From the NCBI GenBank assembly GCA_965218795.1, contig OZ244653.1:2752001-2816000 (forward strand): 64,000 nucleotides of DNA. Reading direction: 5' to 3'. This DNA is from a bacterium. Lineage in GTDB: Bacteria; UBA8248; JACPRG01; G963555815. Below are positions 28,854 to 41,028 of the stretch, piece after piece. Made by a program: the position numbers and the translations under genes. Position 1 is the stretch's first letter; each line of letters opens with the position of its first letter. A model generated the notes under the pieces. It did no database searches. It worked only from the letters and a program-made list of their open reading frames with translations, and was not told where the DNA came from.

Positions 28854-29133
28854 AGCGGAAGACCCTGGTCGCAATCTTCGTCTCCGCTCCACAATGATTC
28901 AATATCCAGCTTAGTGCCGGACGGTGAGTTTGCCAAATACGGATGGGAGAGACCGGGCCATCGCGAAAGGGACGATCTATCGGGACCCGCAGGCGGATGG
29001 AGGCTTTGCCCGGACGGTTGAACCTTCAAGGGCGCCCGGTTATCCTGAGAGCGGGAATGAGAAGTCTATGATTCTCGCCGGCAAGAATCTCGCTGAACGC
29101 CGGCCGTGAAACACTTGAGGAGGAGAGGTCAAT

Positions 29134-29373
29134 ATGGAACAACCCAATGTTGCGCAAAAAGGTCCCTTTCAACATGCGCCGGAAGAGGACGGGCAGGTCT
29201 GGTGGTGTGCGTGCGGACTCAGTCAAAACCAGCCCTTTTGCGACGGTTCTCACAAGCCCACATCCTTTCGCCCGGTGATGACCGAAGTCAAGGCGGGCGA
29301 ATCGCACTGGTTTTGCGGCTGCAAGCAATCGGGTAACAAGCCCATGTGCGACGGAACCCATTCCTCGCTGTAA
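29134..29373 (+). CDS. CDGSH iron-sulfur domain protein (two motifs)
   Basis: WCACGLSQNQPFCDGSH and FCGCKQSGNKPMCDGTH. Confidence 0.95.
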   Translation: MEQPNVAQKGPFQHAPEEDGQVWWCACGLSQNQPFCDGSHKPTSFRPVMTEVKAGESHWFCGCKQSGNKPMCDGTHSSL

Positions 29374-29395: not shown

Positions 29396-29438
29396 AGCGG
29401 TCGGTCATGCGCTTTGGTGCAAGGCCGGCCGCTTTTTT
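29396..29438 (+). terminator. Rho-independent terminator
   Basis: AGCGGTCGGTC...GGCCGGCCGCT stem followed by a T-run, just after the CDGSH stop. Confidence 0.7.
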
Positions 29439-29667
29439 ACGGAATGAGTAGTTATGGGCTTGAAGGGGAAGTTGATTTCTCAGATGAAGCCGGTAGAAGA
29501 AATGTCGAAAGATACCTCAAGGAGAGTGGTCTTGAAAACGATGAGGAGGCAAGACGAGAAGTTCTCGCTGTCGACAAGCACTTGAGAGAGATATGTGAGC
29601 GATTGCACAAAAGATTAATAGTCAAACTGATACCTGAATGCTTTCTCTATCTCATCCTTTTCTCCTA

Positions 29668-30181
29668 CTATCGAGCAAGCGAACTTTCACTGACCCAGGC
29701 CGGCAACTGCTCAATATCCTTCATGTCATCGAGTTTCTTCGTGAGCTTGTATGTGACGGATTGGCCTTCGGCCATGCGAACGAGTCTGCCAGCTCGCCCT
29801 TCAGCGATGTCTCCTTTCCGCCAGACGTTGAACACAATCTCATGCGCGACAAATTCCGAGACACAACAGATATCCGTAATCCCTGTCCAATCGAACGTGG
29901 TTGAACTGGAACGTCCCATTCGCTCCCAGAGAGGCCGTCTTGATCTCGAACCGATGCCTGCCAATGCGCATATCGGTTTCCGACGTCCGATCACCATTCC
30001 CGATGTCGATACCCGATTGTGTGAGGTAGCGTCGGACGAACTCTTCTCCGATTTCGCCCCGGTTGGTATTGCCAAGGCCCCTATAACCCTGGAACGGAGA
30101 ATCATCCCATATGGATTTTGGAGCGTGTTCCCGAATGCTCTCTACGAGAAGAGTGATTGGAGTCACGCTGGCGGTTCCCAA
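29668..30181 (-). pseudogene. PD-(D/E)XK restriction-endonuclease-like gene, frameshifted near 29846
   Basis: RGEIGEEFV, TDMRI..FEIKTAS, FQFNHVRLDRDY; C-terminus continues in another frame (HEIVFNVWRKGD); adjacent to a methylase. Confidence 0.65.
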
Positions 30182-30861
30182 ATGCCGCCCATCTCTCCTC
30201 GTTTCCAGAAGACGAGAAAGAATGAATGATTCTTGCGGGCATGCACTTGACGAACGACGCGGCTGACACCTGGACGGTTGTTCCTGACGACCACGAAAAG
30301 GTCCTCCGCGACGAAGCCCATGTCTTGATATGCCTGCATGATTTCGACGTGGGTGAACCTCTGACGATTAGAGCATACCTCGTCTTGACATTTCACAATC
30401 AGGACACCGCGTTCGCGCAACACGCGGCAAGGTTCCTTCCCCGCCTCGTAATAGAGCGATAAAACCGCTTCATGATATTTTCCGTTCGTCCGGTTCCCCG
30501 ATCCGTTGTTGCGGTAATGGTCCTCGAATGGTTGCTGGGTGGAATGTGCCGTCCCGCCGGGCGAATGCATATAGGGCGGGTCAAGCACGACGCAATCAAT
30601 CTCTCCATCTTCGTAGGGAAGATCACGACAATCTGTTCCGTGTTGAATGTCGGATGCTCGAAGCTGGTATCTGTCTTGGGAGATGTTCCGCCAGAAAACG
30701 CCTTTGCCGCAGGTGACATCCGCAACGACGCTGCCAGGGGCAACATACAGGTCGAGAATTCGCGGGAACACCTGATCGTTCCCATCCATGTAGGCACTTG
30801 GTACGAGGTCTCTGGTTGGCTCTCCGTTTCGCACCATACGGTGCATAGTTGATTGGTTCAT
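30163..30861 (-). CDS. DNA N4/N6 amino-methyltransferase
   Basis: ADVTCGKGVF SAM-binding motif, LDPPY, RVLRERGVLIVK. Confidence 0.85.
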   Translation of the reverse strand: MNQSTMHRMVRNGEPTRDLVPSAYMDGNDQVFPRILDLYVAPGSVVADVTCGKGVFWRNISQDRYQLRASDIQHGTDCRDLPYEDGEIDCVVLDPPYMHSPGGTAHSTQQPFEDHYRNNGSGNRTNGKYHEAVLSLYYEAGKEPCRVLRERGVLIVKCQDEVCSNRQRFTHVEIMQAYQDMGFVAEDLFVVVRNNRPGVSRVVRQVHARKNHSFFLVFWKRGEMGGIWEPPA

Positions 30862-30963
30862 GCCAGCCCCTCCTTGAGAGTCAAGTATTACGAGGCGATG
30901 CGATTTGTCGAGAGCCTTTCATACCAGGGCCGCCCGCTGGATGAACGCCCCGAACGGATCATC

Positions 30964-31365
30964 CTAGTTTCGCACATTGTACTTGTAGCAGGCTTCATCG
31001 CTATAGGCATCCGCGTGCTTTCGAGTGTAGTTGTGGTGGGAGCCGAACCATGCACATTTCAGAAGTGCCCAAAATCCCTCGATGGTGTTGATGTGGGTTT
31101 CGCCGTCTGCATACTGAACGCTATGGTTGATGACGGCGTGATTCAATGACCTTGGAAGCGGTTGTATCCAGAGTATTCATCCGTGATCAACAGGGTTTCG
31201 TCAGGCTGAATCTTGTCCCTGATGAATCCTCTAAGACTGTTGAACGTGAGCTTGTCGGCGGCCTGTGCGGTCACCTTTCCGCCCCGCTCAATGGCGCCGA
31301 TAACCGGCATCTTGTCCGTTCCGTGGCCGCGCTTGTGGGGCTTGTCGTCCTTCCGGTTGTCCGCT
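30964..31365 (-). mobile_element. IS1595-family transposase 3' remnant (frameshifted)
   Basis: KRGHGTDKMPVIGAIERGG, LITDEYSGY, VINHS..Y, HINTIEGFWALLK, YKYN. Confidence 0.85.
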
Positions 31366-31369
31366 GGAT

Positions 31370-32185
31370 TCAAAAAATTCCGGAGGTCCGTAAAAAAAGA
31401 TATGCCGCCGTGATGGAAAGAATGCAGTTCAGGAGCGTTTTCAGCGAGCGGTCCATCAACCGGGGAACGAAGACTGCACCCAGTTGAGCTCCGATGATTC
31501 CCGCCGCGGTCGTTGTCCAGACAACGGCGGGGTCGATGTTCCCCTGCCCCCAGTGAGAGAAGGTTCCGACAACGGCGGAAATCAAGATGGTCATGAGTGA
31601 TGTCCCGATTGCGACACGGAGCGGGATCTGCATGAAACCTACAAAGGCCGGGACTTTCAGGAATCCGCCCCCCACCCCGAGCAGCCCGGTCAGGAATCCC
31701 ACCCCGCCGCCGACCAGCACCGCCTTTGAAACGTTTACTTGATAGGTAACGGGCCGGTTCCCGATCCGGACCGTCTTGGTGTAAGCCCAACGACTTGGTT
31801 TCTTCATGTCCGGCGGGTTCGCTGCAACGGTCGATTTCCGATTGATGAGGTAAATCCCTGCGACGACGCAAAACCCAAGCAGGATTTGAAGAATCCTTCC
31901 AGGCACTCGAGCCGTCAAAAGGGACCCCAAGACAGTCGTTACGATGGTTGACAGGGTGACGATAACCCCCAGCCGCCAATCGACGGTCCCCTGAAATCCA
32001 TGCCGTAGGGCGCCGGATCCGGCGCTGAAAAAGATGAAAACCAGGCTGGCGCCGACCGCCGCCTCCAGTGGAACGTGAACCAGCAGCAGCAGCGGGATCA
32101 GGATGAATCCTCCGCCCACGCCGATGAGGCCTGACAGAAAACCCGTCGTGAAACCAATCAGGAGATAGAGCCAGAGCATCATCAC
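31370..32185 (-). CDS. TauE/SafE (TSUP) sulfite-exporter-family protein
   Basis: Two GLxGVGGG repeats, AVGASL and AIGTSL, about 8 TM segments. Confidence 0.92.
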   Translation of the reverse strand: MMMLWLYLLIGFTTGFLSGLIGVGGGFILIPLLLLVHVPLEAAVGASLVFIFFSAGSGALRHGFQGTVDWRLGVIVTLSTIVTTVLGSLLTARVPGRILQILLGFCVVAGIYLINRKSTVAANPPDMKKPSRWAYTKTVRIGNRPVTYQVNVSKAVLVGGGVGFLTGLLGVGGGFLKVPAFVGFMQIPLRVAIGTSLMTILISAVVGTFSHWGQGNIDPAVVWTTTAAGIIGAQLGAVFVPRLMDRSLKTLLNCILSITAAYLFLRTSGIF

Positions 32186-32279
32186 ATCGGGAGACTGTCG
32201 GCGAGCCCGTTATCCTGTTCGACGTTCAAGCGGGGTGGGGATGACCGGGGTCGCCTTCCGAGTCGCAGAGGGAACCCAT

Positions 32280-35147
32280 TCATTCCGACCCCTCTTGGGG
32301 AACGCTGTAAGCCCTCGGTTCCACCGGGAGAGGACGGTTCAGCCATAGTGGGCGTCTCAACCCCTGGGGCCCGGGCGCCGGGCGGGTTTTCTTGAGCCAT
32401 TCCTTGTAAACCGCGAAGGATTTCTCGGTGTCCGCAAAAATGTCTCCATACTGGTCATCGGGTCCGGCGCGTTCGACGCGTACCTTCTGGTGCCAGCAGT
32501 GCATGCCGCTGACAGGGTCGGGATGAACCGGGAACGCCGCGTTCTGGTGAACCCCGGGATCCTGCCACCAAATCCGGCTGGTGTCCGGGTCTTCGCTTTC
32601 AAAGGGCTGGACCCCATGGACCTGCCGGAGGAACCATCCGTTTTCCCCTTTCTTCTCCATTCGGACGAGCGCAGACCCCAGGCGGCCTCCTTCGCTTTCA
32701 TCCAGCCGCCACCGGCCGGCATGGTGTGAGCAGGCGAGCACGCCGGGCCGGATTCCGGCGGTCACCCAGACCCGATTCACGAAATATCCAATCTCCGTAT
32801 GGACCTTGACGAGATCCCCGGTTTTCACCTCGAGCATCTCCGCGTCCCGGGGATGAATCCAAACCGGGTTTCGGTGAGAAATCTCCATGAGCCATTTTGC
32901 GTTCGCCGACCGGGTATGGATCAGGGTGGGAAGCCTGAAAGTGGGCAGAAGGACGAACGCGCCGGGCTCCATGTCTTCCTGCTGGATGTGGCTGGCGATG
33001 TAGCCCGGCAATACGTGCTCGGGCCATCCCCACGTCTTCAGGGTCGAGGAGAAGAGTTCGAGCTTGCGGGAAGGTGTCGGAAATCCTTCGAGCAGACGCC
33101 CGCCCACCTCCACGCCGACGGCCTTTTCGTCTTTCCGAGCGACGCGAGATACCGGATCCACGGACACCCCTTCGGCCTCGTCCGGTGAAAACTCCCGGTT
33201 GTATTTTTCGAATATGTTCGATTGGATTTCGAACGCTCCATACTTCTGCATGTACTCCAGCGCCGAGAGCCCTTCGGTCGCGGCTTTATCCGGGAGTCCC
33301 GGAACGCTGTGATCGAACATCCATTGGTAGTATTCCCGGACTGTGACTTTCTCCCCCGCCCGATAGGGGGATTCGAAGTGCTTCCGGATACCCAGTTGCC
33401 CGTCGGGGTCGATTCGCCAGGAGAGCTCGATCCAGAATTCATCCTCTTCCCATACCTCGCCCGGATTGGCCTCATACGTATGCAGGACGGTCTTCCCCAT
33501 TTTCTCCATCGCAGCCCGAACAACGGGTTGCCGGAAGGAGACCCAGACGCCGGAGTGGGTCTCCTGACTCTGAACGTCATGGCGCTCTCCCGCCAGCCCC
33601 ATCGGAAGGACGTAGTCGGCGTAGAGGGCCGATTCATTCCACGTGGGAGTGAGCGCGGCGTGAAGTCCGACCTTCGCCTCGTCCTGGAGCGCCTCGATCC
33701 AGGTGAAGCCGTCCGGGTTGGTCCAGATCGGGTTGTAGACCCGGGTGAAGTAGACGTCGAGTTTTCCGCGTTCTTCCTTGAGAAAATGGGGAAGAAGAAA
33801 ACTCATCTCGTAGGTCGAGAGCGGATACTCCCGCGGGTAGATCAGCTCGTTCCAGAACTTGACGGCCGGAGGCGAATCGAAAGGCGCCGGCTTGATCTTG
33901 TTCCAGGAGGCAGGTGACGTTCCGCCCCGGGTTCCCACGCTGCCCGTCAAGACGGAAAGGAGGTACAGGGCGCGGGTGATCTGCCAACCGCCCAGATGGG
34001 CTGATGCGGCCCCCCGCCAGATATGGGCGCAGAAGGCCGAGCCCGCATTGGCGATGTCCCGGGCAACCTTCCGGATGTACGGGGCCGGAACGCCCGTTTC
34101 CGTTTCCGCGAATTCGGGCGTGAATCTTTCGTAGACCCGCTTGATTCGGTCGATAAAATCTTCGAAAGAGCCTCCCCGCATTCCCGCCTCTTCCCGAAGA
34201 TATTCCTCCCAGTTGACCCAGGTCTCCACAAACCTCCGGTCGAAGATGTCTTCCTTCAGAAGGACCTGAGCCAGGGCGAGGAGGAGGGCGCTTTCGGTCC
34301 CCGGGTAGGGGGCCATCCAGTAATCCGCCCGGGCGGCGGAGTTCGACAACCGGGGGTCGATGACGGCCAGTTTGGCGCCGTTCAGTTTGGCCTCGATGAT
34401 CCGTTGCGCGTGAGGATTGAAGTAATGCCCCGATTCCAGGTGCGCGCTCATCAAGAGGATAAACCGGGCGTCCCTGTGGTCCGGCGAGGGACGGTCCGAT
34501 CCCTGCCAGAGATAGTACCCGAGGCGCGCGGAGGCTGAGCAGACGTTGGTGTGACTGTTATGGCCGTCGATCCCCCATGCCTTCAGAACGCGCTCGACCG
34601 ATCCCTCGTAGCCCGGTCTGCCCACGTGATACATTACTTCGTCGGGTCGGCCGTCCTGGAGGCATTGCCGAATTCGCTGAGCAAGATCGTTCAGGGCGGT
34701 ATCCCAGCTTACGCGTTCCCACTTCCCGCTCCCGCGCGGGCCCACGCGCTTCTGGGGATAGAGGATACGGTCCGGGTCGCGAATCTGGTTGATGGTGGCG
34801 GGACCCTTCGCGCAGTTTCGTCCCCGGCTTCCCGGATGCATGGGATTGCCTTCAAACTTCCGGATCTCCATGCGATCCTTGTTCACATAGGCGAGAAGCC
34901 CGCAGGCCGCCTCACAGTTGAAGCAGATTGTCGGGACCAAAGCGTACCGGCTGGAGCTCTCCAGGCCTGCCGATGGAGGATCGGGGTCCGGCCAATCGTC
35001 CCAGCGGTCAGCGGGCGGATATTCAACAAATTGTCCTTCCGGAGCCAACCGTTCCACGGGACCCGGGGCGGGCTGTGGCAGACTTTCAATCAGCCCCATA
35101 CGCTCTGCGATGCGTTCAATCCAGCCGGGGTTCGGACGGTACGTCAT
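32280..35147 (-). CDS. DMSO-reductase-family molybdopterin oxidoreductase catalytic subunit (Psr/Ttr-like clade)
   Basis: CFNCEAAC...RNCAKG Fe-S motif, HTNVCS, ADYVLP, FPTPSRKLE, IHTRS, VWIHPRDA; no evident Tat signal. Confidence 0.9.
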   Translation of the reverse strand: MTYRPNPGWIERIAERMGLIESLPQPAPGPVERLAPEGQFVEYPPADRWDDWPDPDPPSAGLESSSRYALVPTICFNCEAACGLLAYVNKDRMEIRKFEGNPMHPGSRGRNCAKGPATINQIRDPDRILYPQKRVGPRGSGKWERVSWDTALNDLAQRIRQCLQDGRPDEVMYHVGRPGYEGSVERVLKAWGIDGHNSHTNVCSASARLGYYLWQGSDRPSPDHRDARFILLMSAHLESGHYFNPHAQRIIEAKLNGAKLAVIDPRLSNSAARADYWMAPYPGTESALLLALAQVLLKEDIFDRRFVETWVNWEEYLREEAGMRGGSFEDFIDRIKRVYERFTPEFAETETGVPAPYIRKVARDIANAGSAFCAHIWRGAASAHLGGWQITRALYLLSVLTGSVGTRGGTSPASWNKIKPAPFDSPPAVKFWNELIYPREYPLSTYEMSFLLPHFLKEERGKLDVYFTRVYNPIWTNPDGFTWIEALQDEAKVGLHAALTPTWNESALYADYVLPMGLAGERHDVQSQETHSGVWVSFRQPVVRAAMEKMGKTVLHTYEANPGEVWEEDEFWIELSWRIDPDGQLGIRKHFESPYRAGEKVTVREYYQWMFDHSVPGLPDKAATEGLSALEYMQKYGAFEIQSNIFEKYNREFSPDEAEGVSVDPVSRVARKDEKAVGVEVGGRLLEGFPTPSRKLELFSSTLKTWGWPEHVLPGYIASHIQQEDMEPGAFVLLPTFRLPTLIHTRSANAKWLMEISHRNPVWIHPRDAEMLEVKTGDLVKVHTEIGYFVNRVWVTAGIRPGVLACSHHAGRWRLDESEGGRLGSALVRMEKKGENGWFLRQVHGVQPFESEDPDTSRIWWQDPGVHQNAAFPVHPDPVSGMHCWHQKVRVERAGPDDQYGDIFADTEKSFAVYKEWLKKTRPAPGPQGLRRPLWLNRPLPVEPRAYSVPQEGSE

Positions 35148-35157
35148 TCTCGGCTCC

Positions 35158-36711
35158 TCAACTCTGCGGGATCCGCTGCGGTATGGTGACCCACAGATGC
35201 GCGCCAATCAAGACACCGCCCAGCATCAGGAAAGCCGACAGGAAATCCGGCCAGCCCGGCCCCCACAGCAGGAGAACCCCTGGAGCGGCGTGTCCGAGGA
35301 CCAGGACGCCTATCCAGAATGGAAGCGCTCCTCTACCCCGCAGAATCTCCTGGGCGGCGCTCTTTGCGTCATTCGTCGCGTGGGGGAAGTACAGTTCGCC
35401 GAAAAACGCCAAAACGCTCAGAACGATACTGACGCGGAGAACCATTCTGAGCCGGTCGGCCGCCGCATCGTCAAAAACAGAATGGAACAGCAGAAGAACG
35501 GCGCCGCCTGCAAGGACGGCGTGCAAGAGCATATGGACCGAGAGCAGAGGGCTCTGCCAGAAATCCCGCCCTTTGGCCTGGGCGAACAGAAAGGCCGTAT
35601 AGACCGCCGTCAAGAAGGACAGAATGGTCCCGGGCCAGGTGAGATGTTTCTGGAATCCAGGTCCCCCGATGAGTCCTCCAATCAACCACAGCCCCAGCAC
35701 GCATCCGAAAAGGAGCAGGATGTATCCGCCCTTGACCAGCCAGGACTTCCATTGGGGGCGAAGGAAGATGTACAGGAACCGGTCGACCCGTCGGAGATCG
35801 TTCACCAGCAGTATGCAAGTGAGCAGCAGGAAGAGGAGGCCCATGATCGCACCGATCCATCCCATTGCGACCGCGGATTCTCCCGATCCCTGGATCATCA
35901 GCGGGATGCTGAAAGCGCCCGCCGCAATCGCCTTGGTCAGGATGTAAGAGGAGACCTTCCATCCCCAGACGACGCGCTCGCGCGGCGCGTCGTAGACTCG
36001 CCGGGCCAACTGGCCGAGCCATCCCCTCGTCTGGCGGGGCCCATTGGGCAAAGAATCCCGGCTGGACGGGGGCGGCCAGGGAAATTCCCCGGGCTCTCGG
36101 GTGGCTTCTCCCTGGCTCCACATGTAGGTGTCCGCAGTCGAAGCCGCCATAGGATCGAGGGACACCGTGTCCCCATCGATGTAGAAGAGTTTGGGCAGGG
36201 TCCCTTTTTCGGGTTTTCGAACTTGAACCGATTCCCGGATCGCGAGGCGTCCAATCTCGCTGTGCGGGTCTTCCAGATCACCGCAGATGATGGCGTGGGT
36301 CGGGCAAACCGTCACGCAGGGGGGCGCAAGGCCTACGTCGGTCCGGTGCGTGCAGTAGTTGCATTTGGCAGCCGTTTGCTCATATGGGTCGATGTAGATT
36401 GCGTCATACGGGCAGGCTTGGATACATGCCTTGCATCCGATGCATCTGCGGCTGTCGAAATCGACGATTCCGTCCGGGCGGGTAAACAGCGCCGTGACCG
36501 GGCAGATGTCGACGCAGGGCGCGTCCGCGCAGTGATTGCAGCGCATGACCGAGAAACTGCGCTTCGTGAAAGGGAATTCACCCTTCTCGATGTATTTCAC
36601 CCAGGTTCGATTGACCCCGATCGGAACGTCATGCTCTGCCTTGCAGGCGACCGTGCAGGCATGACAACCGATGCACTTCCGGTTATCGATGATGAAACCG
36701 TGCGTAACCAC
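35158..36711 (-). CDS. NrfC-like 4x[4Fe-4S] domain fused to an NrfD/PsrC membrane anchor
   Basis: CIGCHACTVAC, CNHCADAPCVDICP, CIGCKACIQACP, CNYC..PPCVTVCP; then WGWKVSSY, DLRRVDRF..SWL and TM helices. Confidence 0.92.
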   Translation of the reverse strand: MVTHGFIIDNRKCIGCHACTVACKAEHDVPIGVNRTWVKYIEKGEFPFTKRSFSVMRCNHCADAPCVDICPVTALFTRPDGIVDFDSRRCIGCKACIQACPYDAIYIDPYEQTAAKCNYCTHRTDVGLAPPCVTVCPTHAIICGDLEDPHSEIGRLAIRESVQVRKPEKGTLPKLFYIDGDTVSLDPMAASTADTYMWSQGEATREPGEFPWPPPSSRDSLPNGPRQTRGWLGQLARRVYDAPRERVVWGWKVSSYILTKAIAAGAFSIPLMIQGSGESAVAMGWIGAIMGLLFLLLTCILLVNDLRRVDRFLYIFLRPQWKSWLVKGGYILLLFGCVLGLWLIGGLIGGPGFQKHLTWPGTILSFLTAVYTAFLFAQAKGRDFWQSPLLSVHMLLHAVLAGGAVLLLFHSVFDDAAADRLRMVLRVSIVLSVLAFFGELYFPHATNDAKSAAQEILRGRGALPFWIGVLVLGHAAPGVLLLWGPGWPDFLSAFLMLGGVLIGAHLWVTIPQRIPQS

Positions 36712-36859
36712 GAATCACTCCCTGCTGGATCAGGACGGGCATCCCCCATCCAATCATCCTGTTGGAACGCTGAAAATCCCCGCGCCGGCCGGTTGCAGGC
36801 AGACTTCAGCCCGCCCCCGGAGTGGCAAGGCGCTGTGGAGGAGCGGTTTCAGGAAAGTC

Positions 36860-38263
36860 TCAATCCGGAACGGTCTTGAATCCGGCAGCGCGCCAGGCAT
36901 TCATGCCGCCTGCGACGTTCTTGACTTCTTGATAGCCGTGTCGGAGCAGCAGGCTGGCACCGGTGCTGCTTCGGATCCCTCCGCCACAGATGATGGCCAG
37001 GGTATCATTTTTTGAAAACGGCAGTTCCAGGTCATTCTTCCACATTTTTTTGAAATTCATGTGGAATGCGCCCTCGATATGGCCGTTGTCCCACTCTTCG
37101 TCTTCGCGCACGTCGACCACCTGGAAGCCGTTGATTCCGTTTTCCGAAATGTATCGGTGTAGATCCTCGACGGAAATCTGGGGCAACTCCTTCCCGGCAA
37201 GGCCCGCTTCCTTCCATGCCTCCAGACCCCCTGCGACGAACCCCCGGACGTGACGGTCCAGTCCCAGGAATCCCATTTTGTGAATCGCCTCCTGAGCATC
37301 CCGGTCCTGTTCGCCAAGAAGAATGAGCGGCGTTTCAGGTTCAAGGACCCAGCCGATTCGCTGCTCGAATTCACCGGCCGAGAGCGGGATGTTCACAGCC
37401 CCGGCAACATGACCACGCCCGAAGTCTTCCGGCTCGCGCATATCGAGAAGTCGGACTTTCGGGTCCGAAACCATCAAGTCCCGGACCTCTGTAGACTGGA
37501 GCGGCTGGGCTTCAGGTTCTTCCATGGTCAAGGGGAGGCGGCCTTGGTTGATGGCGACGATTGGGTGAATATTCGCGGGCCGGTCCGGGAGGCCCTCGGT
37601 CATGTAGCGGACGAATGATCCCTGATCCGGCTGCCGGAAGGCCTGATTATGGCGCCGCTCAAAACCCAATGTTGTGGCAAACTTGCCACTCAGCGACCGT
37701 CCTCACGTGGAGCCGCCGACATGGCCGGGCCAGACTTCCGTGTAATCGGGAAGGTCCGCAATGCGGGGCAAAGCGCGGTCGAAGAGTTCGGCTGCGCCTT
37801 CCTCCGAGCGCTGCGCCAGATCGGGCCGCGCGATATCATCCACCAGGATGAAATCTCCGGTGCACAACATCCAGGGCTCCTCCGCCCGGCTCAAATCCGA
37901 AATGGCCACGGTGATGTGTTCCGGCCGGTGTCCCGGTGTGTGCATCATCTCCAGCCGTACGGATCCCATCTGGAGGGTATCGCCGTCTTTGACGCGCGTA
38001 GCGGGGTATTGGATATCTGCTAGATCATGGAGGATCAACTCGGCTCCGGCGAGATCGGCGAGGCGTCGGGCGCCGGAGACATGGTCGGCATGCAAATGTG
38101 TGTCAATCACGTATCGGATCTTGACACCTTGCTTCCGGGCGATGGCTGCAAAGGGTCCAGGATCCCACAGGGGATCGATGACCGCGCATTCACCGCCCCC
38201 GAGACAGCCGCATACATAAGAGACGCACCCGGTCTCCTTGCGGACGACCTGCTCGAAGAACAT
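36860..38263 (-). CDS. Persulfide-dioxygenase (ETHE1-like MBL) plus two rhodanese domains; selenoprotein (467 aa, U187)
   Basis: THLHADHVSG, TPGH, TGDF, PGHVGGST-U-GRSLSGKFATTLGFERRHN (family GHxxGSxCG..TIGxE) across TGA 37703-37705, in frame with the rhodanese part (CGGGIRS); GUGGCA-AGUU-UGCCAC hairpin after UGA. Confidence 0.88.
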
Positions 38264-38832
38264 CGTGAATTCCTCCATGCTGGATATCGCTGCCGGATAG
38301 CGCTCGGGATCCCGCCGACGCTTTTGCGGGACACAGAGACGAATTTTTCGACATCGGGAATCATATCGCCAGGGGACGGAAGCATTGAAACCATCCAGGA
38401 ATATCGACGGCTGGTCTTCAACGGTACAGAATGTGGGGCGGAGTTTACTTCAATTTGGGCGAAAGATGAAGCACTTTTTCTTTTCTCCGCAATCCGTTGC
38501 AATCCGGTTGGAGGGCGATCTGGACGGCCGGCCGCGATCGATGAATCCTACTGATTCACATTGCCTCGATTGTGGGTGCCTACAAGAACCTGTCGAATTC
38601 AGACATCTATCACGAGGCGAAGCGCATTGAGCTGGATCGGAGCAGAGAGGCGAATTCAGAAGAGGAAGAGGCGGTGGATGAGGGGCGGAGACATTGTAGC
38701 CGCATTTATGAACCTCCGAAGGAAAAAGTGAAACCTCCGCTTACCAGCCGGCCCTAAAAGCGTGCTATGATTTGTCAGGTGCACGTGCAGATTTTGCCCG
38801 AACGAAGGTTGCACCCCTGGAGGACAAGAACC

Positions 38833-39156
38833 ATGACGGATGAGCAATTGAACGCCTTTGAGAAACGCATGGATGAGCGGTTCGATAAAATGGATGAGCG
38901 GCTGCTCAAGATGGATGAGCGGTTGCTCAAGATGGGTGAGCGGTTCGATAAAATGGATGAGCGGCTGCTCAAGATGGGTGAGCGGTTCGATAAAATGGAT
39001 GAGCGGCTGCTCAAGATGGATGAGCGGTTCGATAAAATGGATGAAAGACTGAATGCCATCACGAAATGGTCGGCTACCTTCACCGAGTGGTCCGTTTCGA
39101 TTGACGAAAGGCTGGATAATCTCACGAAGAAAGTGGACAACTTCATATCCGCTTAG
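38833..39156 (+). CDS. Coiled-coil heptad-repeat protein
   Basis: GGAGG RBS; repeats of MDERFDK / MDERLLK. Confidence 0.7.
   Translation: MTDEQLNAFEKRMDERFDKMDERLLKMDERLLKMGERFDKMDERLLKMGERFDKMDERLLKMDERFDKMDERLNAITKWSATFTEWSVSIDERLDNLTKKVDNFISA
38869..39057 (+). repeat. 21-bp tandem repeat (8 full units plus one degenerate)
   Basis: ATGGRTGAGCGG(TTCGATAAA or YTGCTCAAG) units. Confidence 0.95.
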
Positions 39157-39181
39157 GGTTCGAATCCTTTCACCAGTTCCT
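39154..39181 (+). other. Degenerate tRNA 3'-end fragment (possible att remnant)
   Basis: TAGGGTTCGAATCCTTTCACCAGTTCC resembles a tRNA-Gly T-arm/acceptor end; no 5' half is present. Confidence 0.35.
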
Positions 39182-39460
39182 ATCTTGCCACGCCCGTAAG
39201 CCTTTCCGCGCTCCATTAAGTCGCTGAATTCGTCATTTCTGCACCGTTTTTCACCGTCGCAAATTACGACCTGTTTTCAATCTATTCTTGATTTCAAAAA
39301 ATTCCATTCATGCACCTCTACAGAATCCTTCGTTTTCCGGTTGTGTTTCCGGATCGGGTAACATGGTTTCGTTACAAGACCGGCAGCTGAATCGTCGTTC
39401 ATTCCTATGCCGGCATCGAACGCCGCCGCGGATGACTTTGTGCAAGGAGGGTCACAACCG

Positions 39461-39862
39461 ATGGAGTCCACCATCAGATTGTTCGAAGCCTTGGATTGGA
39501 TGCCCTTGCCCGGAAACCCGAATGTCAACGTAAAGGAGTTGCTGACGCGGGATGAGTGCGGATCCCTCGATCTGAAATTGTGGCGGATCTTGTTCGAGAA
39601 AATCGAGCCGGGCGCCGCCGTACTGCCTCATTTTCATGATACGGCCGAAGTGATCCACTTCATCAGCGGCGAGGTCCATGTCCTCGTCGGTGAGCAGAGG
39701 AGGGGTTGCCGGCCGGGAGACACCCTCATTGTCAAAAGCGGGACCATTCACAGTGTGGCCAACAAAGGCGAGTCGCCCACGACGCAGATCAGTTACTTCG
39801 TCCCAGCGGTCGGTCAGGATGAATTCGGGTTGACGGAGCAGGTTCCCGGAATTGAAGTTTGA
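39461..39862 (+). CDS. Cupin-domain protein
   Basis: PGAAVLPHFHDTAEVIHFISG and PGDTLIV..GTIHSVAN; AGGAGG before ATG 39461. Confidence 0.88.
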   Translation: MESTIRLFEALDWMPLPGNPNVNVKELLTRDECGSLDLKLWRILFEKIEPGAAVLPHFHDTAEVIHFISGEVHVLVGEQRRGCRPGDTLIVKSGTIHSVANKGESPTTQISYFVPAVGQDEFGLTEQVPGIEV

Positions 39863-39927
39863 GATGAAACCGCATTTGCGCTGAATCATTCCATCGGAGA
39901 TTTCCTGAAAACAAGGAGAACCTGACA

Positions 39928-41028
39928 ATGCAGGCAAAGGTATTCCGTGTGCCCATGGGGTCACCGGACGATATCTCCGGCGTCGTCGATTTGATTGAGA
40001 GCGGAGCGTGTCAACCGGAGGAAGTGGTTGCGGTCCTGGGGAAAACAGAGGGGAACGGCTGCGTGAATGATTTCGCCCGCGGTTTCAGCAACTTCGTTCT
40101 GGCGGATTATTTCGGGACGAAGATCGGGATCCCGCGGGACGATGTGACTCATCGGATTGCCCTGGTGATGTCGGGCGGCACGGAAGGCGCAATGAGCCCT
40201 CACTTCACGCTTTTCGCGAAGACGGAGGACGGCGAGGCCAATGGCGACAAACGACTGGCCATGGCGTCCGGGCGCACCCGGGATTTTCTGCCCGAGGAAA
40301 TCGGCCGCATGCCTCAGCTCCTGGAAACCGCCGATGAGGTCCGCCGCTTGATGGCGGAGGCACAGATTGAAAGTGTCGAAGACCTCCATTTCGTCCAGAT
40401 GAAGACGCCGTTGGTCACGACGGACCAGGCGGAAGACGCCTTGAGGCGGGGAAAAACGGTATGTGCCGACAATACGTACAAGTCGATGGGTGATTCGCGG
40501 GCGGCATCCGCCCTGGGGATTGCGCTCGTCACGGGTGAGGTCACGGAAGACAGGCTGAGCGATGAGGTCATCGGGCATGACGGGTCGCTGTACTCAGGCG
40601 TCGCGTCCACTTCTTCGGGTATCGAACTTCAGTGCAATGAGATTGTGGTTATGGGGAACAGCGCAGCGTGGGGGGGCGACCTTGTCATTGGACACAGCGT
40701 GATGAAGGATGCCCTGGACCGGGACGCCGTCAAGGAAGCGCTGGCGAGCGCGGGGCTTCTTTTTGATTGGAGCCTGTCGCCCGATCAGCGGGGGCGGGTG
40801 GTCAATATCCTGGCCAAGTGTGAGGCCAGTCCGGACGGCCGGATTCGCAGGCGCCGCCATACCATGCTGGACGATTCGGACATCAACAGCACGCGGCACG
40901 CGCGAGCCGTCGTGAACGCCGTCATCGCATCCATCGTGGGCGACCCGATGGTTTATGTTTCCGGTGGGGCGGAGCACCAGGGCCCTCCGGGTGGAGGGCC
41001 CGTGGCAGCCATCGTGCGGGTGGAATGA
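39928..41028 (+). CDS. Cyanuric acid hydrolase/barbiturase-family ring-opening amidohydrolase
   Basis: GKTEGNGCVNDF, VMSGGTEG, SMGDSRAASALG, STSSG, VSGGAEHQGPPGGGP. Confidence 0.93.
   Translation: MQAKVFRVPMGSPDDISGVVDLIESGACQPEEVVAVLGKTEGNGCVNDFARGFSNFVLADYFGTKIGIPRDDVTHRIALVMSGGTEGAMSPHFTLFAKTEDGEANGDKRLAMASGRTRDFLPEEIGRMPQLLETADEVRRLMAEAQIESVEDLHFVQMKTPLVTTDQAEDALRRGKTVCADNTYKSMGDSRAASALGIALVTGEVTEDRLSDEVIGHDGSLYSGVASTSSGIELQCNEIVVMGNSAAWGGDLVIGHSVMKDALDRDAVKEALASAGLLFDWSLSPDQRGRVVNILAKCEASPDGRIRRRRHTMLDDSDINSTRHARAVVNAVIASIVGDPMVYVSGGAEHQGPPGGGPVAAIVRVE

Follow-up and report, generated by a model that had tools for sequence, protein, structure and literature searches.

A putative CstB-type selenoprotein encoded with a molybdoenzyme and a TauE-family exporter in a UBA8248 bacterium

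Do four neighbouring genes, in which a persulfide dioxygenase interrupted by an in-frame TGA stands beside a molybdenum oxidoreductase, make up a new sulfur or selenium redox module, and what would selenium do in it? The window analysed here is a stretch of 64,000 nucleotides from the genome of a bacterium of the UBA8248 lineage (GCA_965218795.1, contig OZ244653.1, positions 2,752,001 to 2,816,000), and all positions below are counted within it. A first-pass annotation, made from the letters alone, had pointed to four co-oriented genes; sequence and Pfam matches confirm that all four are present on the minus strand, closely packed, from 38263 to 31370. The genes and the elements within them are as follows.

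36860..38263, minus strand: probable CstB-type persulfide dioxygenase-sulfurtransferase (MBL and two rhodanese domains), from Pfam, alignment to PDB entries and translation with TGA read as U
38081..38101, minus strand: MBL metal-binding motif THLHADH, residues 55-61, aligned to 3TP9 and 3R2U
37928..37942 (HTPGH), 37850..37864 (TGD) and 37721..37732 (PGH), minus strand: further putative MBL ligands, aligned to 3TP9 and 3R2U
37703..37705, minus strand: in-frame TGA, predicted Sec187 in the motif PGHVGGST-U-GRSL, from alignment to Cys-type homologues
37674..37689, minus strand: SECIS-like hairpin GUGGCA-AGUU-UGCCAC, 6 bp with a G/U-containing tetraloop, 13 nt past the UGA
36968..36994, minus strand: active rhodanese loop IICGGGIRS (Cys426, Arg431), aligned with CstB C408 and R413
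35158..36711, minus strand: four-[4Fe-4S] ferredoxin/NrfD fusion, 517 aa, from Pfam
32280..35147, minus strand: Mo-bisPGD catalytic subunit, 955 aa, from Pfam, NCBIfam and the length of a homologue
31370..32185, minus strand: TauE/SafE (TSUP) family anion exporter, 271 aa, from Pfam PF01925 (172.4 bits, cut-off 32.6)

The dioxygenase and FeS-NrfD genes are separated by 148 nt, the FeS-NrfD and Mo genes by 10 nt, within which lies a GGAG, and the Mo and TauE genes by 94 nt. The dioxygenase frame has 467 codons including the one TGA, with an alternative ATG at 38278. The Mo gene was first listed from a TTG at 35207; the true start is most likely the ATG 60 nt further in, at 35147, because a 95%-identical homologue is 955 aa long. 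Consensus scans for promoters and terminators at the locus gave results at the level of shuffled sequence. In one sequencing run, presumed to be of RNA, three short contigs matched stretches of the Mo, FeS-NrfD and MBL genes exactly; we do not count them as evidence of expression.

Selenocysteine and the identity of the dioxygenase

There is little doubt that selenocysteine is inserted at the TGA. The first-pass annotation had placed a U at the cysteine of a GSxCG motif, and Sec187 does align with the Cys of GS.CGK in 3TP9 and 3R2U, as well as in 21 of 22 Cys-type copies, with homology to both structures continuing straight across the codon. The same TGA is found in five related genomes (G004, G006, G014, G015 and G049). 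TGA-type copies occur in 6 of the 51 genomes of the window's phylum and, in a second phylum (that of G052), in 12 of the 401 genomes sampled; the codon is TGA in every one of the 18 genomic Sec-type copies examined, the 12 of the second phylum included. In both genome surveys the matches of at least 48% identity all carry TGA and those of 40% or less all carry Cys. Across the 12 codons from the TGA to the next possible start, four relatives (two of them near-copies of each other) show 17 synonymous differences against a single nonsynonymous one. The genome also encodes the Sec machinery, with SelA (565.8 bits), SelB (386.7), SelD (319.1) and tRNA-Sec (72.1) all above their cut-offs.

The opposite reading, in which the TGA is a true stop and the MBL part (186 aa) and the double rhodanese (269 aa) are made as separate proteins, is scarcely credible. 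It can call on the public gene calls, which are 186-aa proteins, on a TTG lying 12 codons past the TGA, and on a SECIS-like hairpin that has neither covariation support nor an Rfam match. This hairpin is kept in 17 sequences (13 perfect, two with a G.U pair and two with one C.A mismatch) with no compensatory change, the 71-nt fold is no better than that of shuffled sequences (z -0.73), and an Rfam scan of positions 30000..40000 at E values up to 1 returned one chance microRNA match and no SECIS family. A true stop would, however, fall exactly on the position of the catalytic Cys201 of CstB and delete it, would do so in all 18 copies, would leave the purifying selection on the 12 codons behind it to be accounted for, and would occur in a genome with full Sec machinery.

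The dioxygenase had been taken for an ETHE1-type, sulfite-producing enzyme. Its best PDB matches, over the full length, are instead 3TP9 (E 6.5e-72) and 3R2U (E 5.6e-69), and on this alignment the CstB type is very likely. Pfam recognises Lactamase_B (51.3 bits) and Rhodanese (104.5 bits), and the order of domains, MBL, inactive rhodanese and active rhodanese, is the three-domain build of Staphylococcus aureus CstB (3R2U). The HxHxDH motif and the other putative His/Asp ligands of one Fe(II) match the alignment of both structures; the middle rhodanese reads LILLGEQ and lacks a catalytic Cys, and the CGGGIR of the C-terminal rhodanese provides C426 and R431, with R386 flanking it. U187, C426, R386 and R431 align with CstB C201, C408, R370 and R413 (3R2U chain positions with a 24-residue offset subtracted), while Gly188 and Leu191 correspond to G202 and L205, and the CstB-specific Cys-Gly loop is present at the aligned positions as Sec-Gly. 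Identity to S. aureus CstB, estimated from the alignment rather than computed, is about 30-35%, and the window protein differs from it in that Cys201 is replaced by Sec, Lys203 by Arg and Gln13 by Cys.

For what these residues do we rely on the consulted parts of a 2026 preprint (PMC12934615), which describe the C201-G202 dipeptide as a glutathione mimic and report that S. aureus CstB oxidises a persulfide on its own loop Cys201, which becomes self-S-sulfonated. According to the same parts, CstB-type enzymes release thiosulfate and no free sulfite, which is at odds with the product first assumed, and the cst operon of S. aureus has CstB and TauE at its core (PMC12934615). A TauE gene accompanies the window enzyme as well, but cstR, cstA and sqr are absent from the cluster, which has the Mo enzyme instead.

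The molybdenum enzyme and its relatives

That the Fe-S subunit is fused to its membrane anchor, as first described, is borne out by a 517-aa protein matching both Fer4_11 (78.6 bits) and NrfD (70.6 bits), with 16 Cys in four groups. Its ferredoxin part spans residues 1 to about 200, with the first cluster motif from residue 13, and its NrfD/PsrC-type membrane quinone part residues 245 (approximately) to 517, where a crude hydropathy scan, from which no topology was derived, picked up six of the expected eight helices. Against the TtrB model the fusion scores 184.4 bits (cut-off 416). In the Mo subunit, C75, C78, C82 and C112 are the FS0 cysteines, and Cys203, in the motif HTNVCS, lines up with a Cys of Thermus thermophilus PsrA (2VPW, chain position 173); we take it to be a candidate Mo ligand. 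Judged by eye, neither the Mo subunit nor the FeS domain is preceded by a twin-arginine motif or a hydrophobic leader, in agreement with the missing Tat leader noted earlier for the former. The lack of export signals on both subunits suggests that the enzyme faces the cytoplasm and, together with the NrfD-type anchor, upholds the cytoplasm-facing, quinone-linked arrangement that the first-pass annotation had proposed.

Among solved structures PsrA (2VPW) matches the Mo subunit best, at 144.5 bits, with ArrA next. Every NCBIfam equivalog stays below its cut-off: the DmsA/YnfE subfamily scores 211.5 bits against 777.7, PhsA 209.2 against 694, ArrA 121.7 against 1600, TtrA 95.4 against 1750, and YnfE and YnfF about 151 against 1675 and 1650. 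Proteins with 58-95% identity to the subunit number in the thousands and are spread across phyla, and relatives were counted in at least 588 species genomes. Of 80 loci, 64 have the FeS-NrfD fusion immediately upstream of the Mo gene, each time as a single open frame. Within the DMSO-reductase family the two-gene complex ranks with the most conserved and most widespread enzymes, and it turns up often in lineages of aerobic heterotrophs (Saprospiraceae, Pyrinomonadaceae, Cyclobacteriaceae). The make-up of the locus, at first described as unlike any recognised system, is in this sense composed of familiar parts, the Mo and FeS-NrfD pair being that of a huge conserved two-gene family, and CstB with TauE being the cst core (PMC12934615, as far as consulted).

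In a tree of Mo subunits that included no SoeA of Allochromatium vinosum or Aquifex, no TtrA and no SreA, the family formed a clade of 22 rows (SH-aLRT 100) containing a protein of Chlorobium sp. N1, separate from a clade of Azoarcus and JGI-named Psr/Phs proteins, from E. coli PhsA and from a DmsA-family protein. Chlorobium sp. N1 (locus L065), whose genome has only two PF00384 genes, carries a Mo gene of 61% identity with a fused FeS-NrfD gene upstream and a TauE gene downstream. From these sequence comparisons it is highly probable that the window pair is a member of this green-sulfur-bacterial two-gene family, and the Chlorobium pair would itself be PSRLC3. In the parts of the sources seen here, PSRLC3 is described as two genes (PMC5473276) and inferred to be a cytoplasmic sulfite oxidase akin to SoeABC (PMC9324843, PMC6338057); the genes of SoeABC are called 'universally present' in purple and green sulfur bacteria (PMC8232776, citing Dahl 2013), and bacterial SreA, a sulfur reductase, is grouped with SoeA in one lineage (PMC10100899).

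Protein names were less specific. The JGI-named relatives among the matches listed bear a generic COG name and none is called SoeA, a hint that the family is perhaps no more than a sister group to it. Cluster look-ups for ten distant Mo representatives likewise gave generic names or 'thiosulfate/polysulfide reductase chain A' and never SoeA, a search of a protein atlas returned generic names only, and a 41%-identical representative (P0125) used as query brought in further unnamed proteins belonging to this broad family. A Caballeronia plasmid match of 26% identity was dropped, as it is a 732-aa protein in a different arrangement. We know of no member of the two-gene family that has been assayed.

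SoeABC, the sulfite:quinone oxidoreductase of A. vinosum, is encoded by three separate genes in the order A-B-C, whereas the window has a BC fusion followed by A; the likeness is one of features and not of identity to a proven SoeA. The features shared with both PSRLC3 and SoeABC are a Mo-bisPGD subunit with FS0 and a putative Cys ligand, a four-cluster FeS subunit, an NrfD anchor, and a cytoplasm-facing position without export signals (for the window, by eye); with PSRLC3 the two-gene encoding is shared too. PsrABC (2VPW) and the PhsABC of Salmonella and E. coli have the same three-module architecture, and the Mo Cys aligns with position 173 of PsrA, but they are Tat-exported, face the periplasm and consist of separate subunits. 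E. coli PhsA in particular is only about 26% identical to the window Mo subunit and falls into a separate clade of the tree, and the NCBIfam PhsA model stays below its cut-off.

A proposed persulfide pathway and its alternatives

The neighbours of the Mo pair elsewhere are informative about its role. In 24 of the 80 loci, all in other phyla, a CstB-like gene of the Cys type lies near the same pair, a finding that speaks against reading the window locus as a new module; in 15 of the 80 this Cys-type CstB, independently evolved, is upstream and on the same strand. Other neighbours are SulP (20 loci), the YeeE/YedE halves (8 and 8), type-III-SQR-like genes (6) and TauE (5-6), the last of which follows the Mo gene in the Chlorobi loci L059, L065 and L075. 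The Mo locus of Rhodococcus pRHL3 has DsrE, TusA, three MBL genes and an ArsR/BigR-like regulator, and that of T. roseum a CsoR-family regulator. The recurrence of persulfide dioxygenases, SQR, YeeE/YedE, SulP and TauE points to a testable role of the enzyme in heterotrophs, the cytoplasmic oxidation of sulfite to sulfate. Of the sulfur and selenium theme under which the locus was first presented, the sulfur part stands, and nothing points to a selenium oxyanion as substrate.

The Sec-type enzyme keeps such company less often. G004 and G006 preserve the order CstB, FeS-NrfD, Mo, TauE, with protein identities of 62-87%. Of the 51 genomes surveyed in the phylum, 41 have the Mo family and 6 the Sec enzyme; G014 has the Sec enzyme alone, no Mo family member being found there with this Mo query, and G001 has the Mo gene and no CstB-like gene at 1e-60. 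In the second phylum, none of the 12 loci of the Sec-type dioxygenase has the Mo pair nearby. Conservation of the four genes together, on which the first interpretation depended, thus holds for these two related genomes and not for the second phylum, and the link between the Sec-type dioxygenase and the Mo enzyme is lineage-specific.

We propose that the four genes, presumably co-transcribed, form a cytoplasmic module oxidising sulfane sulfur, and consider it slightly better than an even call that they act as one pathway. If the mechanism of S. aureus CstB carries over, Sec187 would take the sulfane sulfur from a low-molecular-weight persulfide and swing to the Fe(II) site, where the sulfur would be oxidised to a selenium-bound sulfonate and then handed to a persulfidated Cys426 of the C-terminal rhodanese; selenium would be both the better nucleophile and the better leaving group in the two transfers. 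The product of the dioxygenase would be thiosulfate, or sulfite after cleavage by a sulfurtransferase. The Mo-bisPGD subunit and FeS-NrfD fusion would act as a cytoplasm-facing quinone reducer, most likely turning sulfite into sulfate, although that sulfite is the substrate of the pair is an evenly balanced proposition, and TauE would export a sulfur oxyanion. The most likely overall course would run from persulfide through thiosulfate or sulfite to sulfate, with electrons passing to quinone and the anion exported. As CstB is reported to release thiosulfate (PMC12934615, in the parts consulted), a sulfite-oxidising partner would need a thiosulfate-cleaving step, and the cluster holds no enzyme for it besides the fused rhodanese.

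One might instead suppose that the Mo enzyme is a cytoplasm-facing reductase of sulfur, polysulfide, thiosulfate or tetrathionate, or a Psr that operates backwards as a Mo-type sulfide:quinone oxidoreductase and, standing in for SQR, provides the Sec enzyme with sulfane sulfur. This is unlikely, even though PsrA and then ArrA are the closest solved relatives, the DmsA/YnfE subfamily and PhsA give the top NCBIfam scores, the sulfur reductase SreA shares a lineage with SoeA (PMC10100899, as consulted), a type III SQR was not found in the window genome with two queries, and thiosulfate rather than sulfite is the reported product of CstB (PMC12934615, likewise in part). All the NCBIfam scores lie far under their cut-offs, whether for PhsA, TtrA or ArrA, and the tree splits the family from E. 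coli PhsA and the JGI-named Psr/Phs clade. The aerobic heterotrophs that carry it, with an O2-dependent dioxygenase and a SulP sulfate permease as neighbours, fit oxidation to sulfate, and the presence of SQR-like genes at six Mo loci argues that the enzyme is not a general replacement for SQR.

It is less probable still that there is no common pathway, the Sec dioxygenase and TauE being a cst-like detoxification pair with an independent housekeeping Mo enzyme set between them. The far wider distribution of the Mo family in the phylum, the solitary Sec enzyme in G014 and in all 12 loci of the second phylum, and the 56 of 80 Mo loci whose examined flanks lack a CstB-like gene would all agree with such a separation; they must be set against the four-gene order kept in G004 and G006, the Cys-type CstB that came independently to lie upstream of the pair on the same strand in other phyla, and the TauE gene after the Mo gene in Chlorobi; the other recurrent neighbours are sulfur genes. 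A module for selenium itself, detoxifying selenide or perselenide or reducing a selenium oxyanion, is very unlikely. A selenoprotein is indeed present, and the DMSO-reductase family includes selenate and selenite reductases (YnfE and YnfF scoring as given above), but the cluster has no selenium-specific gene, the recurrent neighbours of both enzymes elsewhere are all sulfur genes, Cys-type orthologues occupy the same place in other phyla, and the known selenate and selenite reductases are periplasmic (PMC10100899, Table 1, in the part consulted).

Breadth of the selenocysteine-type family

The Sec enzyme merits more weight than the first-pass annotation gave it. Sec-type CstB is a broad selenoprotein family that annotation has truncated, present in at least two phyla and many metagenomes. 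Among the best 120 database matches to the N-terminal 186 aa, 115 are 184-186 aa long and 119 stop at ...ST, right before the codon. In public annotation the gene becomes two, one for a 186-aa 'MBL fold metallo-hydrolase' and one for a rhodanese protein, so that the family is missed in selenoproteome counts and in surveys of the sulfur cycle. In the portions of the four selenoprotein surveys consulted, supplementary tables aside, it does not appear under any MBL name.

The sole selenoprotein combining an MBL fold with two rhodanese domains that our literature search returned is SelTryp of Kinetoplastida, which the source seen in part (PMC1557815) describes as a eukaryotic protein of some 89 kDa that has a eukaryotic SECIS and carries its Sec in a C-terminal CxxU tail, not in the loop of an MBL active site. 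Another enzyme of the sulfide-oxidation route has a catalogued Sec form, of a different fold and acting at a different step, and was not found in this genome. We know of no characterised selenoenzyme that uses selenium to carry a sulfur substrate covalently, through persulfide transfer and sulfonate hand-off. It is a tentative and rather doubtful possibility that Sec-type CstB is a large, uncatalogued family of non-heme iron dioxygenases whose sulfur substrate is borne covalently by selenium, entering as a Se-S persulfide and leaving as a Se-sulfonate, coupled here to a quinone-reducing molybdoenzyme that would take persulfide on to sulfate and conserve energy, as against the export of sulfite. 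By replacing Cys201 with Sec, nature has set up an experiment on why selenium should be preferred to sulfur. Some variation exists next to the codon, the motif being U-G-R-S in the window and U-G-R-V or U-G-R-A in the second-phylum copies, and a metagenome scan with the Sec protein yielded one usable relative, on a 2-kb contig.

The four-gene cluster and its in-frame TGA

The cluster lies at 38263-31370 on the minus strand and comprises four co-oriented genes, separated by intergenic gaps of 148, 10 and 94 nt:

begins 38263, minus strand: gene 1, metallo-beta-lactamase (MBL) plus two rhodanese domains (Pfam), 467 residues given TGA readthrough
37705..37703, minus strand: in-frame TGA of gene 1, the full 467-residue translation being obtained only with readthrough
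minus strand: gene 2, four-cluster ferredoxin fused to an NrfD membrane domain, 517 residues
start taken as ATG 35147, minus strand: gene 3, Mo-bisPGD catalytic subunit
ends 31370, minus strand: gene 4, TauE/SafE protein

The Mo open reading frame is listed from a TTG at 35207; we preferred the ATG because a 95%-identical homologue is 955 aa long, a GGAG precedes this codon and it lies 10 nt past the upstream stop. Inspection by eye found no twin-arginine leader on the Mo subunit or the ferredoxin domain. The first-pass annotation had described these four genes in the same way (co-oriented layout, Sec in the MBL-rhodanese fusion, Fe-S subunit fused to its membrane anchor, no evident Tat leader on the Mo subunit), and its description is borne out.

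The TGA of gene 1 is very probably a selenocysteine (Sec) codon. SelA, SelB, SelD and tRNA-Sec are all encoded in the source genome, each above its family cut-off. The gene 1 protein aligns over its full length with the solved MBL-rhodanese proteins 3TP9 (E 6.5e-72) and 3R2U (E 5.6e-69), in both of which the TGA position corresponds to the Cys of the GS.CGK motif, and 21 of 22 homologues adjoining related Mo genes in other phyla have Cys (GSACGK) there, the 22nd being without the motif. The codon position is identical in G004, G006, G014, G015 and G049, so that the Sec form is found in 6 of the 51 genomes of the window's phylum; one further genome has a Cys form (40% identity). Over the 12 codons from the TGA to the next possible start, comparison with four relatives, two being near-copies, gave 17 synonymous against 1 non-synonymous differences, so this stretch is translated. 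A 6-bp hairpin (GUGGCA-AGUU-UGCCAC) starts 13 nt past the UGA and is kept in all relatives; it shows no compensatory changes among the relatives compared and no Rfam match, and its support for a SECIS element is suggestive only. The SelD gene of the source genome (G000:C1:5147448-5148413, outside the window) has an in-frame TGA of its own inside the profile match, and probably encodes a Sec-containing selenophosphate synthetase.

With 24 subtracted from the 3R2U chain numbering to give that of S. aureus CstB, residues U187, C426, R386 and R431 of the window protein align with CstB C201, C408, R370 and R413, and G188 and L191 with G202 and L205. In the mechanism that a 2026 preprint (PMC12934615) reports for CstB, the dipeptide C201-G202, on a mobile loop specific to CstB, stands in for glutathione at Fe(II); C201 first becomes persulfidated, S-sulfonation follows and depends on O2 and Fe, the sulfonate then travels ~27 Å to C408, itself persulfidated, with R370 and R413 guiding it, and the product is thiosulfate, free sulfite not being released. 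Selenium does not figure in this preprint. By extension from CstB, the selenium of the window enzyme would accept the sulfane sulfur, retain it through dioxygenation and then give up the sulfonate. Sec is the better nucleophile and the better leaving group, which by analogy is a plausible reason for its presence at this site.

Spread and annotation of the Sec-type family

The main interest of the locus lies in this clade of CstB proteins with Sec for Cys201, a selenoprotein family that is widespread, mis-annotated and open to a clear hypothesis on its mechanism. Searching with the 186-residue N-terminal piece as query gave 1118 proteins at E <= 1e-20. Among the best 120 of these 1118, 115 are 184-186 aa long, 119 end in ...ST and 117 in PGHxxGST, exactly one residue short of the Sec position; all 120 are labelled 'MBL fold metallo-hydrolase' or similar, their source names including Acidobacteriota, Chloroflexota and Gemmatimonadota, with one source a marine survey. 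From a sample of 401 genomes of a second phylum, that containing an Aridibacter MAG, 12 have an orthologue (48-55% identity) with exactly one TGA each, and 5 have a 38-40%-identical protein without a stop. In all 12 orthologues the TGA occupies this codon (PGHVAGST-U-GRV) and the hairpin recurs, with a G-C pair changed to G.U in two of them. Close relatives in both genome surveys are all Sec-type, distant ones all Cys-type. As judged from these sequences, the Sec form is a family rather than a single curiosity.

The gene 1 protein stays below the cut-off of every NCBIfam model. The main texts of two recent prokaryotic selenoprotein reviews (PMC13188914, PMC9312934) hold nothing relevant under MBL- or dioxygenase-type names, and those of two older surveys (PMC2398784, PMC1976440) nothing relevant under MBL-type names. 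A full-text literature search for selenoprotein, metallo-beta-lactamase and rhodanese together returned only SelTryp of trypanosomes, which differs in carrying its Sec in a C-terminal CxxU tail (PMC1557815).

Family and placement of the Mo pair

Relatives of the Mo subunit run to thousands in many phyla (58-95% identity), and a search by two conserved heptapeptides found at least 588 in species genomes. Ferredoxin and NrfD parts lie directly upstream of the Mo gene in 64 of the 80 best loci, as a single open frame in all 64; of the remainder, 6 are cut by a contig end, 2 have the fused gene ~2.3 kb further upstream and 8 are without it, 3 of these 8 having less than 1.6 kb of upstream sequence. 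The pair also occurs on the Thermomicrobium roseum megaplasmid, Rhodococcus jostii pRHL3 and haloarchaeal plasmids. It reaches none of the NCBIfam equivalogs.

A quick tree built from 33 hand-picked rows (LG+G4, SH-aLRT supports only) puts the window Mo protein together with proteins of Chlorobium sp. N1, Natrinema, Rhodococcus and Thermomicrobium in a clade of 22 rows (support 100). A long branch parts this clade from one that holds an Azoarcus plasmid protein and proteins with the JGI name 'thiosulfate/polysulfide reductase chain A', as well as from PhsA of E. coli and a member of the DmsA family. At the Chlorobium locus the fused gene and the Mo gene are accompanied by one for TauE, in a genome with two PF00384 genes only. 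PSRLC3, a Psr-like complex of green sulfur bacteria, is encoded by two genes (PMC5473276) and is an inferred sulfite oxidase (PMC9324843, PMC6338057). Genes for SoeABC, a sulfite:quinone oxidoreductase, are given as universal in purple and green sulfur bacteria (PMC8232776, quoting Dahl 2013), and a superfamily survey describes a 'bSreA/SoeA' lineage as cytoplasmic, Cys-ligated, large and unusually conserved (PMC10100899). The JGI-named relatives of the Mo subunit bear a generic COG name, not SoeA. On the strength of the clade, the Chlorobium locus and this literature, we file the pair as a putative PSRLC3 form of a Soe-like enzyme. The Mo module adds a member to a known kind of enzyme that, to our knowledge, was never assayed.

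The window Mo protein (32280..35147) is closer to proteins named Acidobacteriota (66-67% identity) than to the copies that a comparison with genomes G007-G050 gave for 37 genomes of the sister family within its own class (57-58%). Its partner in the tree is likewise an Acidobacteriota protein, though weakly supported (SH-aLRT 80). Two old lineages, or a horizontal transfer of the cluster, could account for this.

In the clade next closest to this one (33-40% identity), on plasmids of Azoarcus sp. KH32C (L105, 4245..12558) and Sulfurovum mangrovi (L106), the FeS and NrfD parts are not fused; downstream of their two genes come those for the Mo subunit, a TorD-type chaperone and a 4Fe-4S protein of 370 aa, then small unknown genes. 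Upstream of the set, Azoarcus has a two-component system of the sigma-54 kind together with a binding protein of PhnD/SsuA type; the Mo gene is absent from the Sulfurovum gene table. In an actinobacterium (R. jostii pRHL3, L107, 9715..10884) and a haloarchaeon (Natrinema halophilum plasmid, L122, 9017..10177), a gene for an Mrp/NBP35-family ATPase overlaps the end of the Mo gene; its product may serve the Mo enzyme as an Fe-S cluster carrier of its own.

Sulfur context, linkage and flanks

All ORFs up to 6 kb from the Mo pair were clustered without bias over the best 80 loci. Those that recur encode a CstB-like MBL-rhodanese (24 loci), a sulfate permease of SulP/STAS type (20), a YeeE/YedE-type sulfur transporter in two halves (8 loci for each half), TauE (5) and a flavoprotein resembling type III SQR (6), which scores 231 bits on the NCBIfam model against a cut-off of 525. 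On pRHL3, DsrE and TusA genes precede the pair, with three MBL genes around and an ArsR-family regulator of weak likeness to BigR nearby; in T. roseum a CsoR-family regulator lies upstream. These neighbours make up the gene set by which sulfide and persulfide are oxidised. The S. aureus route runs from SQR through CstB (thiosulfate) and CstA (sulfite and persulfide) to TauE, a putative sulfite efflux protein (PMC12934615), and a cytoplasmic sulfite:quinone oxidoreductase fits the step where sulfite would otherwise need export. Another enzyme of the sulfide/persulfide pathway, one with a catalogued Sec form, is found at L025 (13857..15047) and five other Bacteroidota loci.

The first-pass annotation had read the four genes as a candidate new redox module, a quinone-linked pathway fed by the selenoenzyme. 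This reading is partly right. The gene order is conserved in G004 and G006, along with a divergent cupin gene and an AtzD/TrzD-family gene. The linkage has its limits. The Sec enzyme gene of G014 lies beside a double rhodanese and an MFS transporter, and a search of that genome with the window Mo query found no family member. The Mo pair, TauE, SulP, YeeE and SQR-like genes are all missing from the 12 second-phylum Sec loci (5-19.5 kb examined per locus), whose recurrent neighbours are unrelated to sulfur. Thus the Sec enzyme is mostly found on its own, and its link with the Mo pair is particular to the window's lineage. The Mo family itself is present in 41 of the 51 genomes of the window's phylum, including G001 (83% identity), where no CstB-like gene was found at 1e-60. 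A parallel to the window's arrangement exists in Bacteroidota and KSB1, where a Cys-type CstB is joined to the same Mo pair. In G014 (L102, 7716..8669) the rhodanese, a 317-aa two-domain protein, and the transporter precede the Sec-type CstB in place of the Mo pair; the rhodanese could supply the thiosulfate-cleaving step.

The divergent cupin and ring-opening amidohydrolase genes (39407..41028, plus strand; AtzD/TrzD family, 493 bits) are similarly placed in G004 and G006 (74-78% identity), with no evident sulfur link. Between the cupin gene and gene 1, the window has ~750 nt of extra sequence that the syntenic G004 and G006 loci lack. A tandem repeat in it at 38869..39044, with a period of 21/42 nt and 8.4 copies of the 21-nt unit, gives a heptad-like protein repeat, MDERxxK, in an ORF (38767..39156, plus strand, 129 aa) that matches nothing in Pfam or NCBIfam. 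At the other end, ~2 kb (29400..31370) separate TauE from the next syntenic gene (29026..29361); the absence of this stretch from G004 and G006, together with a short DNA-methylase-like ORF in it (30163..30861; PF01555, 30.3 bits), suggests an insertion.
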